Assembly: GCA_045602485.1 (NCBI GenBank)
Contig: JAZSBQ010000033.1
Span: 1 to 37,195 of the forward strand
Reading direction: 5' to 3'
Origin: Clostridia bacterium
GTDB lineage: Bacteria > Bacillota > Clostridia > Monoglobales > Monoglobaceae
Length of the DNA stretch: 37,195 nt
Translations under genes and position numbers: made by a program
Notes under the pieces: model-generated
Told to the model about the DNA's origin: nothing
Database searches by the model: none
The model's input: only the letters and a program-made list of their open reading frames with translations
Shown here: positions 23,143-25,847 of the stretch, piece after piece
Position numbering within the stretch: position 1 is the stretch's first letter
How the letters are laid out: each line of letters begins with the position of its first letter

Positions 23143-23173
23143 AAAAAATAGTCTGCACATATGTGCAGACTAT
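23143..23173 (-). terminator. Terminator of the barnase-barstar transcription unit
   Basis: A perfect 26-bp palindrome, ATAGTCTGCACAT|ATGTGCAGACTAT, is followed on the minus strand by TTTTTT. Confidence 0.75.
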
Positions 23174-23196
23174 TCTGATTTCTCATTTTTAATAAT

Positions 23197-23583
23197 TTAC
23201 GAAATTATTTCAAATGTTACATTAGGATTTTCGTCGTGGATTCTTTGAAATATTACAAACATTTTTTCACAGTATTTCTGAACTTCTTCATTCATAGAGT
23301 AAAAGTTATGTATTTCGACAGAAATATCTTCATCGTCATACCATAAATATCTCAAGCAATCCCATAATGCACTCCAGTTTTCACCATAGTATTCAGGCAG
23401 ACCAAACTTTTTCTTCAGGACTTTATGAACTGTTCCGCAATACTTGCAATCCTTAAAATCCAGAATAATTGGATTTTCTGTTATTTCCTTAAAGGCGCAT
23501 TCGTCGTTAGTATAATCTATTATGTGCAATCCATCTGTGCCTTCAAAATCGGTTTCGTTGTTATCATAATATCTCGTATGCAA
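23197..23583 (-). CDS. Barstar-family ribonuclease inhibitor (immunity protein) with an N-terminal extension
   Basis: LPEYYGENWSALWDCLRY aligns with the barstar barnase-binding helix LPEYYGENLDALWDCLTG. The gene lies 12 nt downstream of the barnase-like ORF on the same strand. Confidence 0.85.
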   Translation of the reverse strand: MHTRYYDNNETDFEGTDGLHIIDYTNDECAFKEITENPIILDFKDCKYCGTVHKVLKKKFGLPEYYGENWSALWDCLRYLWYDDEDISVEIHNFYSMNEEVQKYCEKMFVIFQRIHDENPNVTFEIIS

Positions 23584-23595
23584 TTCCTTATTGAT

Positions 23596-24048
23596 TTAAT
23601 AAACTTCTATAAATGTTTCGTAATGGTCATATGTTACAAAGATTAGCCCGTCGTTTGAGAAGACGAGTCGTTGCTTGTTACGATACCCTTGTACATAATT
23701 GATATCTGCTTCATACCAAACTCGTCCTTCTTTATGTGGTAGATGACCATCATCATTATTATATACTCCGCCCAAAATTTGATATCCCGGCAATACTTCG
23801 GCAAGATTTCCTTGTTTTGGTTTCCAACCTAATACTTTTGCGTCGTATTCTGTCAAATAATTATCGGTTAGTTGCTCGAGATATTTTACAAACCAATCAG
23901 CGCCGGCGGTTCCGTATGGGGTCAGTGTGCCAGCCTTTTTTGCGGGCAATAATTTAATCATGCATCTGCAAAAAGGGTGCAATGGCGGTCTTGGGTCAAT
24001 AGGGTCATCGGTTGAATAAATCCTTCCATGATTGTCACGACATCTCAT
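23596..24048 (-). CDS. Barnase-type (microbial RNase N1/T1 superfamily) toxin with a vestigial phage MuF/SPP1-gp7 C-terminal motif; the coding region extends upstream through an in-frame TGA to ATG 24105
   Basis: The C-terminal 100 aa align with barnase along its length: LTDNYLT..LGW..GNLAEV.PG, then RVWYEADINY..GYRNKQRLVFS..LIFVTYDHYETF. The equivalents of Glu73, Arg83, Arg87 and His102 are conserved. The N-terminus carries the PLHPFCRC motif typical of MuF-domain ends. Confidence 0.8.
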   Translation of the reverse strand: MRCRDNHGRIYSTDDPIDPRPPLHPFCRCMIKLLPAKKAGTLTPYGTAGADWFVKYLEQLTDNYLTEYDAKVLGWKPKQGNLAEVLPGYQILGGVYNNDDGHLPHKEGRVWYEADINYVQGYRNKQRLVFSNDGLIFVTYDHYETFIEVY

Positions 24049-24194
24049 ACAGGTCTTTTCGTTCAGAATCGCTACCCAATTCTTTCAATTTTCACTGTAT
24101 CGCATTATTTTCACCTCCAATCTTATCATAATAAAAGGGTTTTAGCAACCTTATAGTTTTATTATAATAAAATTAAAGTGTCATAGAGTGCCAT

Positions 24195-24224
24195 AAAAAA
24201 GCCCCCTTTGAGAAAGGGGCTTTT
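24195..24224. terminator. Terminator hairpin (strongest on the minus strand)
   Basis: aaaaaaGCCCC(c)TTT-gag-AAAGGGGCtttt. On the minus strand the stem is followed by six T residues. Confidence 0.65.
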
Positions 24225-24343: not shown

Positions 24344-24571
24344 TCAATCTCTGAATTCAAATAATTTTTTAAGCGGAATATTAAGAGCATCTGCTATATC
24401 AATCAAAGTATCCAAAGTGCAGGAACAAGCAGCGGTTTCAATTCTCTGCATATATTTTCCGCTAATGTTGGCCTTTTCAGCCAATTGCATTTGTGTCATG
24501 CCCTGTTCTTTTCGATAATGCAGAATATTTAAACCGATTGACAACCATATATCAAAATTCTTATTATTCAT
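24344..24571 (-). CDS. XRE-family helix-turn-helix transcriptional regulator
   Basis: 75 aa. GMTQMQLAEKANISGKYMQRIE is a canonical Cro/C1 HTH. RBS AGAGGTG lies upstream. Confidence 0.85.
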   Translation of the reverse strand: MNNKNFDIWLSIGLNILHYRKEQGMTQMQLAEKANISGKYMQRIETAACSCTLDTLIDIADALNIPLKKLFEFRD

Positions 24572-24632
24572 TTGTAGTCACCTCTGTGACTTATATTATA
24601 TGATAGATATATAACGCAACATACTTATCTAT

Positions 24633-24650
24633 TGTGGGTAAATACCCACA
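24633..24650. promoter_or_regulatory. Perfect palindromic operator candidate between the divergent XRE and SLOG genes
   Basis: TGTGGGTA-AA-TACCCACA has 8-bp arms with no mismatch. It lies 6 nt upstream of the -35 of the rightward promoter. Confidence 0.5.
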
Positions 24651-24656
24651 AATTAA

Positions 24657-24685
24657 TTGACTTTAGTAATGCTTTGTGATAAAAT
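24657..24685 (+). promoter_or_regulatory. Sigma-A type promoter (extended -10) for the SLOG gene
   Basis: TTGACT (24657-24662), a 17-nt spacer, then TGaTAAAAT (hexamer 24680-24685). The track's ORF start at 24676 falls inside this promoter. Confidence 0.5.
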
Positions 24686-24798
24686 ACAAACAAATTAATT
24701 GCAAATATAGGGCTGGAGAGAAGCGGGATAGGGCAAGATATAGCCAACGGCAATCATATTATGAAAAATCTTTCACGGCAAAACGATTGTGTATACAA

Positions 24799-25323
24799 AT
24801 GCGTAAATATTTTGTGCAAAAAGAGGGGAATTATTATGAAAATATTTGTTGCTTTGCAGGGCACAGCACTATCTGGCGTGAGGGGGATATGCCGCAAAGG
24901 GCAGAAAGACTTATTGAGAAGTTGATTACAGAAGAAGATGTTGCTGAGTTTTGGGTCGGGAATTATGGAGAATTTGACAGACTTGCCGGCAACATTGTGT
25001 TGCGGCTTAAATTAAAGTATCCGCATATAGTACTTAATCTTGTTGTGCCATATGTAACAGAAAAAATGAATCAAATAAATTTTTTGTATTATGAAAGATA
25101 TGACGAAATAATAATGGCGGATATGCCTGTAAACACACCGATACGACTTAAAATCTTAAAGTGCAATCAGTATATGGTTAAAAACGCAAGGTTTTTAATA
25201 TGTTATGTTAAAAATGCCTTTGGCGGGGCGGCAAAGACTTTGGAATATGCCGAAAGGCAAAAACACATAAAAATATTTAATCTATGTGAAAAAGCTGCTA
25301 TGTGTCGGGCGTCTGACACATAG
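24799..25323 (+). CDS. SLOG-superfamily protein (DUF1273 / YpsA-YoqJ-like); 5' end uncertain, possible 1-nt frameshift
   Basis: ICCFAGHS...FWVGNYGEFDRLAGNIVLRLKLKYPHIVLNLVVPY...NQYMVKNARFLICYV..AFGGAAKTLEYA follows the DUF1273 pattern (CFTGHR, GGxxGxD, P-rich strand, GGT..YA). The in-frame ATG at 24799 has no SD. The SD-backed ATG at 24836 is in another frame. Confidence 0.7.
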   Translation: MRKYFVQKEGNYYENICCFAGHSTIWREGDMPQRAERLIEKLITEEDVAEFWVGNYGEFDRLAGNIVLRLKLKYPHIVLNLVVPYVTEKMNQINFLYYERYDEIIMADMPVNTPIRLKILKCNQYMVKNARFLICYVKNAFGGAAKTLEYAERQKHIKIFNLCEKAAMCRASDT

Positions 25324-25375
25324 TAGCTTTTGCTTTAATATTATAATTATAGAAAAAGTTTGATTAAATATAACG

Positions 25376-25627
25376 AAAAACAGCCGTCTAATGACGGGTT
25401 ATCTCCGGGTTATCGCTGCGCGCCGGTCGCCGTCGTGAGTCGTTTTGTGCACTGCCGTTTCAAAACTCGTACTTTGGGCGACACCGCTCTCCAAAACAGT
25501 TCCCCGAACTGTTTTGGCTTCGCTAACCCAACGAGCCACGCTCGTCGACCTCATAACTAAAAATCAGGAGATTAAAATCTCAACTACAACGAGAAATAAA
25601 AACAGCCGTCATTAGACGGCTGTTTTT
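25376..25627. repeat. GC-rich structured element of about 208 bp bounded by 22-bp inverted repeats derived from the tRNA terminator hairpin
   Basis: AAAAACAGCCGTCTAATGACGG at 25376-25397 (+) equals the reverse complement of 25606-25627. Internal hairpins include CCAAAACAGTTC-ccc-GAACTGTTTTGG (25491-25517) and 25529-25547. Confidence 0.6.
25598..25627. terminator. Bidirectional terminator downstream of the tRNA pair
   Basis: AAAAACAGCCGTC-atta-GACGGCTGTTTTT: a perfect 13-bp stem including the A/T runs. Confidence 0.75.
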
Positions 25628-25632
25628 ATTTC

Positions 25633-25709
<77 letters not shown>

Positions 25710-25759
25710 ATATATTATTATTTATTTGTTTTTCAAAACAAATTATATGCAATAAACTT

Positions 25760-25847
25760 TGGTGCCGGAGACCGGGATCGAACCGGTACGGGAAAAAATC
25801 CCACAGGATTTTAAGTCCTGGGCGTCTGCCAGTTCCGCCACTCCGGC
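25760..25847 (-). tRNA. tRNA-Leu (anticodon TAA), CCA encoded
   Basis: The minus strand reads GCCGGAGTGGCGGAACTGGCAGACGCCCAGGACTTAAAATCCTGTGGGATTTTTTCCCGTACCGGTTCGATCCCGGTCTCCGGCACCA. It has the long variable arm and the class II Leu architecture. Confidence 0.9.

Follow-up and report, generated by a model that had tools for sequence, protein, structure and literature searches.

Barnase toxins joined to MuF domains belong to a known class of polymorphic toxins. Tox-Barnase with MuF trafficking appears, together with Imm-Barstar, in the lists of Zhang et al. 2012 (PMC3482391). In Jamet et al. 2017, MuF toxins are defined by a full MuF domain and a place in the head modules of prophages; truncated forms are not described there (PMC5576092). 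Here we analyse a short form of about 169 amino acids in a stretch of 37,195 nucleotides from a Clostridia bacterium (contig JAZSBQ010000033.1, assembly GCA_045602485.1), called the window below. The locus consists of a toxin gene with a MuF-derived N-terminus and a barnase domain, followed by a barstar-type immunity gene. Judged from its sequence, it is one broken copy of a widespread two-gene toxin/immunity cassette of gut Clostridia, about 1 kb long. An earlier note on this DNA had taken such a module to be undescribed. The literature search found no paper dissecting the short form, but the combination of Tox-Barnase, MuF and Imm-Barstar had already been listed (PMC3482391). The cassette family is a variant within the known MuF-barnase toxins, and the window copy is an ordinary damaged member.

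The family is large. The toxin sequence read through its in-frame stop retrieved 1629 homologous clusters. Among the 120 clusters listed of these, nearly all have 168-175 amino acids, 98-99% query coverage and both PF04233 and PF00545. In a scan of one genome per species, at least 582 genomes carry a relative. They are all Clostridia (Oscillospiraceae, Acutalibacteraceae, Ruminococcus, mostly metagenome-assembled genomes, MAGs), except L004, the closest hit, whose label is Gastranaerophilaceae. The locus comparisons drew on the best 80 loci.

The toxin and immunity genes of the window present the following features.

23596-24105, minus strand: ancestral toxin gene (MuF-derived zinc-knuckle plus barnase), 169 codons, broken at codon 7
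24118-24112, minus strand: Shine-Dalgarno sequence GGAGGTG of the toxin gene
24105-24103, minus strand: ancestral toxin ATG, six nucleotides after GGAGGTG
24087-24085, minus strand: in-frame TGA at codon 7, at the position of a conserved Trp; single G>A at 24085
23956-24081, minus strand: MuF C-terminal sub-domain, residues 9-50, with a putative zinc site (PF04233, TIGR01641, invariant Cys/His, Foldseek)
23596-24048, minus strand: open reading frame (ORF) of 150 amino acids from the first ATG past the TGA, with the whole barnase domain inside
23598-23596, minus strand: toxin stop codon TAA
23197-23583, minus strand: barstar-type immunity ORF (PF01337, E 4e-17)

After the ATG at 24105 the codons are CGA TAC AGT GAA AAT TGA AAG AAT TGG. 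They give the peptide MRYSEN and then a stop, 18 nucleotides past the ATG. The earlier note had reported this TGA behind a strong ribosome-binding site and ATG, and the re-read sequence is exactly so. A mechanical ORF call runs instead from the ATG at 24048 to the TAA at 23596 (150 amino acids). That ATG lacks a good Shine-Dalgarno sequence upstream and, as the note had also proposed, is not the original start. The homologues begin at the upstream ATG; the 31 top ones share the aligned start M-x-Y-S-x-x-W-K-N-W, with Trp (TGG) in the column of the TGA. The window has AAT TGA AAG, against AAT TGG AAG in the four closest cassettes (L001, L003, L004, L005). In 88 other full-length genomic copies, codon 7 is TGG (41 copies), TAT or TAC (40) and TTT or TTC (6). 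The simplest reading is one G>A transition in a Trp codon, which would truncate the toxin after six residues.

The read-through product combines two domains. Residues 9-50 correspond to the end of the MuF/SPP1-gp7 domain (about its last 45 positions), and residues from about 60 to 169 to barnase. The product of the 150-amino-acid ORF lacks strand 1 and Cys19 of the zinc-knuckle. The MuF similarity crosses the TGA, because the PF04233 score rises from 18.3 bits in the 150-amino-acid ORF, under the gathering threshold (GA) of 29.6, to 33.1 bits in the read-through product of 169 amino acids, with the match starting at residue 9. This match covers profile positions 68-111 of 112. TIGR01641 (phageSPP1_gp7) scores 39.0 bits on the same residues, just under its cut-off of 39.65. 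The hidden Markov model (HMM) results agree with the earlier note in two respects: the similarity spans the stop, and the N-terminus is a genuine C-terminal piece of MuF, the rest of that domain being absent. We call this piece mini-MuF. In all eight other members tested, including those with longer N-termini, the match likewise begins at profile position 60-68.

The mini-MuF motif is C19-x2-C22 ... H43-x2-C46-x-C48. Among the aligned homologues, C19, C22, H43 and C48 are invariant and C46 is almost invariant, which suggests a putative zinc site. An AlphaFold2 model of the homologue P0002 (78% identical to the window toxin; alignment of 86 sequences) has a pLDDT of 96.4 and a pTM of 0.90. In this model the N-terminal sub-domain is formed by strand 2-12, helix 20-25 and strands 29-31 and 48-56, and it is confidently placed relative to the barnase domain. 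With Foldseek, residues 1 to about 48-50 of the model match dozens of predicted structures of phage MuF-like minor capsid proteins (root-mean-square deviation, rmsd, 1.3-1.9 Å; 30-40% identity).

A search with the tail alone covered 1.84 billion representatives. Many canonical MuF proteins end with the motif, as in one where it occupies residues 210-253 of 256. Among the proteins with the tail at their N-terminus, those whose sequences were read were members of the barnase family (intact, fragmentary, frameshifted or rearranged), partial MuF proteins and P0223, which ends in a hydrophobic segment. None of them joins mini-MuF to another recognisable toxin domain. In a tblastn search of 50,697 phage genomes, the tail alone matches, within genes annotated as minor capsid or head-morphogenesis proteins. 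There are three such matches, all weak, the best 35-41% identical at the protein level.

One sub-family of 189-191 amino acids (P0048, P0060, P0061, P0102 and P0109; loci L007, L016, L021, L042 and others) carries a hydrophobic N-terminal extension of about 20 residues. It is conserved as M-D-I-F-x-Y-L-L-L-Q-I-I-N-G-x-x-W, stands ahead of mini-MuF and adds nothing to the MuF HMM match.

The window toxin is predicted to be a barnase-type ribonuclease (RNase). The 150-amino-acid ORF matches PF00545 (E 5e-12), and the barnase part matches barnase and binase in the PDB (E ~1e-30, about 45-50% identity). Foldseek aligns barnase/binase structures with the P0002 model at TM 0.85-0.89 and rmsd 1.2-2.0. 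Barnase Glu73, Arg83, Arg87 and His102 correspond to window E132, R142, R146 and H161, which are invariant across the family. On the other hand, barnase Lys27 aligns with window E86 and is variable in the 88 copies (K 33, R 12, E 6, others). The alignment therefore agrees with the earlier note, which had described a complete barnase with the four residues kept and Lys27 replaced by Glu. Barnase Arg59 aligns with Asp in the window toxin.

The barstar gene keeps Tyr29, Trp38 and Asp39, with the motif LPEYYGEN-x-x-ALWDCL; Asp35 aligns with Ser. PF01337 is its sole domain match, and it has no DNA-binding domain. Its canonical start ATG has become ACG (23577-23575, minus strand), and in place of AGGAGG it has the weaker Shine-Dalgarno sequence TAAGGA. 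A partial duplication of about 56 nucleotides repeats the start region (5' end, 23500-23583), with ATA at 23523-23521 where the relatives have ATG. The frame is open from the TTG at 23583, and the TTG at 23529 is a possible alternative start. The immunity gene had earlier been called intact. Its frame is open and the key residues are present, but the canonical ATG is lost and the 5' end is rearranged.

From these signals, the cassette is predicted to be its own transcription unit between two terminators.

24203-24219, minus strand: intrinsic terminator (stem plus T-run) of the transcript of the upstream helix-turn-helix (HTH) gene, and 5' limit of the cassette unit
24106-24194, minus strand: conserved promoter/leader of about 85 nucleotides
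24193-24178, minus strand: direct repeat TGGCAC-TCTA-TGACAC
24166-24161, minus strand: TATAAT
23147-23174, minus strand: hairpin and T-run terminator past the barstar gene, and 3' limit of the cassette unit

The leaders of L001, L003, L004 and L005 are near-identical to that of the window despite unrelated flanks. The homology of the cassette has an abrupt onset at ATGGCAC (24194) and ends just past the barstar stop codon. In 22 of 85 loci the toxin start is preceded, at a constant spacing, by a direct repeat of the form TG[GTA]C[AG]-N5-6-TG[GTA]C[AG]. The expectation from shuffles is 0.57, and the opposite strand gives 3. The carriers include the window, L001, L003, L004, L009, L012, L020, L021, L023, L025, L037, L042, L046, L048, L054, L056, L061, L067 and L078; besides the window's own copy, an example is TGTCGGTGAATGTCG. 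The repeat looks like a candidate operator of a shared regulator. We also considered TGGCAC-N5 as a sigma-54 promoter and rejected it: the second element is a repeat (TGACAC, TGTCAC, CGGCAC) and not TTGC.

The genomic context varies. In 80 of 83 loci a barstar gene is the next one after the toxin, and across all 83 no other conserved neighbour was found, including any secretion or phage partner. An XRE-type HTH gene is near the cassette in 13 loci. The flanks differ among loci, for example spoVA/sigF regions, and a penicillin-binding protein (PBP) gene is near the cassette in L011, L019 and L172, likewise in the window. The window itself is core chromosome (uvrA, uvrB, a class A PBP, topoisomerase subunits, gmk, yicC), and no other MuF-like sequence or prophage was found in it. 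In L172 a different cassette allele stands beside the same BofC-like and PBP genes as in the window, which suggests that this site is a variable hot-spot.

Few copies are viral: the short form occurs in 2 of 2.9 million viral contigs (IMG/VR). Two of the three phage-borne copies lie within or directly past virion tail genes (L084, L171). In L084 (5899-6821) the cassette is a reverse-strand moron with head-tail genes on one side and the tape-measure gene on the other; the phage that carries it, a siphophage, has a portal of the HK97 type and a ClpP-capsid fusion. In L171 (3001-3471) it follows sheath, tube and chaperone (TAC_5) genes on the same strand. L085 (5938-6483) has an amidase (putative endolysin) gene on the same contig, about 4 kb off.

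Several loci are rearranged. Tandem toxin/barstar pairs are present in L012, L038 and L080. Barnase C-terminal fragments with their own barstar stand upstream of the full gene in L018 (845-1024), L020 (8051-8134) and L046 (47-178). Extra barstar genes are present in L006, L010, L029, L045, L052, L074, L078 and L172. This shows recombination-driven turnover as in polymorphic toxin loci.

In the window, an islet at 24344-25847 separates the cassette from the core genes.

24344-24571, minus strand: XRE-type HTH gene, 75 amino acids
24676-25323, plus strand: ORF of 215 amino acids, with at most a weak YpsA/SLOG match
25633-25847, minus strand: tRNA-Met and tRNA-Leu

In MAGs the cassette is strikingly often within about 1 kb of a contig end (L001, L002, L005, L011, L019, L034, L036, L046, L051, L071, L072, L075, L083 and others). 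Such positions suggest that assemblies break here in a region that is repeated or varies between strains.

We consider it probable that the window holds a recently nonsense-inactivated, at most leaky, allele of this widespread stand-alone cassette, with mini-MuF as a possible targeting module of the family. When intact, the first gene would encode a cytoplasmic protein of about 169 amino acids, in which a Cys/His sub-domain of about 50 residues, probably zinc-binding, packs against a barnase RNase. The second gene would encode a barstar-type inhibitor that shields the producer. The G>A change would have turned Trp codon 7 into TGA, and toxin synthesis would be abolished or reduced to a trickle, which could arise if ribosomes misread UGA as Trp or re-initiate weakly at Met20. 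The barstar would stay as an open ORF beside the broken toxin. A nonsense-inactivated toxin next to its immunity gene was one reading of the earlier note, and it is the best fit; the immunity gene, however, has itself lost its canonical start.

The lesion is probably real and not a base-call error. It also seems recent, because the rest of the toxin gene is conserved like its intact relatives, P80T excepted. Every homologue examined has Pro at this position (86 aligned proteins, 88 genomic copies). The genetic code is the standard one, since TGA terminates 6 of 26 window genes and TGG is used as Trp codon 60 times. No Rfam family was found near the TGA, and the local RNA fold is not significant (z = -0.9). 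An alternative code or selenocysteine was rejected: TGA is an ordinary stop here, there is no match to a selenocysteine insertion sequence (SECIS) or to Rfam and no significant structure, and the relatives have Trp, not Cys or selenocysteine.

Broken toxins are present in other genomes. The second copy of L080 (11203-11712) has TGAs at the invariant Trp10 and at the Trp71-equivalent, which is Cys in its first copy; ORF lengths in L080 barely change under code 4. The third copy of L038 is frameshifted. Likewise, the cluster representatives P0125, P0137, P0138, P0174, P0185, P0226, P0248 and P0261 are frameshifted around A-P-G-K-M and carry the alternative-frame peptide ...GMRQISIT.... They could be real pseudogenes or homopolymer sequencing errors, and representatives of 50% clusters are biased towards aberrant sequences. 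P0186 joins a toxin N-terminus to a barstar C-terminus in a deletion fusion. P0082, a candidate for another allele truncated at the N-terminus, was rejected because the frame upstream of its mis-called start reads MRMKSHRYLQW.

For the function of the family, we infer that mini-MuF is a targeting module, for example one docking to the phage portal or the capsid interior, and not part of the RNase. The portal of SPP1 recruits gp7, the protein family behind mini-MuF, into the capsid (PMC6316719). A docking or targeting role is plausible because the MuF-derived domain replaces a signal peptide and two of three phage-borne copies adjoin tail genes. An intracellular role in abortive infection is about equally tenable.

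Several points weigh against a recent inactivation combined with a targeting module. The toxin is off-consensus at 2 of 58 positions conserved at 90% or more, where most intact members have 0-4, and the barstar at 0 of 12 conserved positions. Such a lack of prolonged decay fits equally well a sequencing or consensus error, or an allele under selection. Wild-type (prfB+) B. subtilis reads through TGA at about 6% (PMC7918605), and TGA at a Trp codon is the sole nonsense change that misreading restores to the wild-type protein. An exact 45-nucleotide pattern for the same strain (N at the variable base) had 0 matches in the metagenome collection. As to targeting, most cassette copies are not near phage genes, and the part of gp7 that binds the portal is not stated in the literature found. 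The lesion is recent, leaky or an error.

The alternative that survives best concerns the family. It is possible, although we do not favour it, that the cassette works inside the cell as a toxin-antitoxin or abortive-infection module, with mini-MuF sensing phage head or portal proteins instead of serving as a delivery tag. The toxin lacks a signal peptide, and no secretion or phage gene is conserved next to it; the cassette is a compact two-gene unit at scattered chromosomal sites and an occasional prophage moron; and its N-terminal domain comes from a portal-binding protein family (PMC6316719). However, the defence models of PADLOC gave no match for the toxin and a weak AbiP-like match for the barstar. 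The gene order is not that of type II toxin-antitoxin modules: the toxin comes first, and the barstar has neither a DNA-binding domain nor apparent labile-antitoxin features. Toxin-first order, orphan immunity genes and toxin fragments typify inter-bacterial toxin/immunity loci, and Zhang et al. 2012 discuss this order together with simple barnase-barstar pairs (PMC3482391). The family positions aligned with the barstar contacts of barnase vary, for example Lys27 and Arg59. In its toxin-first order, extra barstars, tandem pairs and variable contact positions, the family resembles inter-bacterial toxin/immunity loci more than toxin-antitoxin modules.

It is unlikely that the allele is real, attenuated and in use. 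In this case misreading would remake the 169-amino-acid toxin, or re-initiation at Met20 would give a 150-amino-acid barnase with no functional zinc-knuckle, and expression would be tuned down to the weakened barstar start. The stop is indeed at a Trp codon, and bacteria decode UGA as Trp at low frequency (PMC7918605). The remaining toxin and the barstar are conserved as in intact members, the degraded start codon and Shine-Dalgarno sequence of the barstar would favour less toxin, and the in-frame stops of the second L080 copy are likewise TGAs. Nevertheless, no recurrent TGA at Trp7 was found in the family: a degenerate pattern run over 241 million metagenome records, with no positive control, gave 85 hits, all outside the family. 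A Trp-to-stop hit matches the expectation by chance under transition bias, since Trp codons hold 10 of the 18 transitions that would create a stop in the toxin gene. The ATG at 24048 has no Shine-Dalgarno sequence to support re-initiation, and a stimulatory RNA structure is absent.

We find it rather improbable that mini-MuF is a minimal portal- or capsid-docking tag by which barnase is loaded in trans into MuF-type phage heads, the TGA allele being leaky and selected. If this were true, the chromosomally encoded barnase would enter the heads of resident or invading phages of this type. The RNase would then be delivered with the phage DNA into cells without the matching barstar, or it would poison the phage progeny as a defence.

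A sequencing or assembly artefact, with a true TGG and an intact cassette, is more doubtful still. The copy differs from its relatives by one base in an otherwise pristine frame. The contig looks metagenome-type, and such a consensus may take up minority variants; the frequent location near contig ends suggests strain-variable regions. On the other hand, a short-read consensus seldom has substitution errors, the same copy also has P80T and a rearranged barstar 5' end with no canonical ATG, and the toxin is broken in other genomes too.

Least of all can we credit the proposal of the earlier note of an orphan toxin-tip/immunity cassette in which the short stretch of MuF homology acts as a recombination handle for swapping tips onto full-length MuF genes: tandem pairs, toxin C-terminal fragments and extra barstars (L012, L038, L080, L018, L020, L046, L006 and others) would suit it, but at about 169 amino acids the toxin of this very large family is normally already full-length, and in more than 1600 clusters the gene is complete, with a conserved promoter/leader, Shine-Dalgarno sequence and ATG of its own; the fragments that persist (L018, L020, L046) are barnase C-termini and not MuF tails; the phage MuF tails, at 41% protein identity or less, are far below the need of homologous recombination, with no full-length MuF-barnase that has a closely similar tail in the 50,697 phage genomes; no full-length MuF gene sharing the tail was found within the window; and mini-MuF was not found joined to other toxin domains.

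With inactivation of an ordinary family member as the preferred explanation, the window copy itself is a damaged gene of little importance. The interest lies in the family. Hundreds of gut Clostridia species carry it, and NCBI annotates its members as "phage head morphogenesis protein", a mis-annotation. For annotators, PF04233 or TIGR01641 matches of this short kind mean toxins and not head proteins. Its toxins set the last 45 or so MuF residues apart as a Cys/His module, autonomous and confidently folded, and join it to an RNase that is among the best understood. This offers a simple experimental handle on two questions: which MuF segment directs cargo to the phage head, and whether MuF toxins get delivered.

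Compared with known systems, the cassette is close to barnase/binase-barstar of Bacillus (PF00545/PF01337) in its RNase match, its catalytic residues, the barstar residues Tyr29, Trp38 and Asp39, and the order from toxin to inhibitor. It differs in that a MuF-derived Cys/His domain of 50 residues stands in place of the signal peptide. Lys27 is Glu in the window toxin and variable in the family, and both partners have another residue at the Arg59/Asp35 interface pair (Asp in the toxin, Ser in the barstar).

The cassette shares with the MuF polymorphic toxins of temperate phages a MuF-derived N-terminus, a C-terminal toxin and a small downstream immunity gene. However, it has just the last 45 or so positions of the MuF domain, is overwhelmingly chromosomal with no adjacent portal or terminase, and its module is not seen with other toxin types. 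The rare phage-borne cassettes are morons in tail modules and not part of the head/packaging module. The toxin has the motif W-x-A-x-D-x-x-T-C-x-x-C ... H-P-x-C-R-C and the fold of the short MuF/SPP1 gp7 minor capsid proteins. Conversely, it lacks the 150-250 or so residues that precede the motif in these proteins, and it has no head-morphogenesis gene context. Finally, displaced toxin fragments and extra immunity genes at some family loci are like those of orphan CdiA-CT/Rhs modules. Unlike those promoterless tips, the window gene and its relatives are complete and promoter-bearing.

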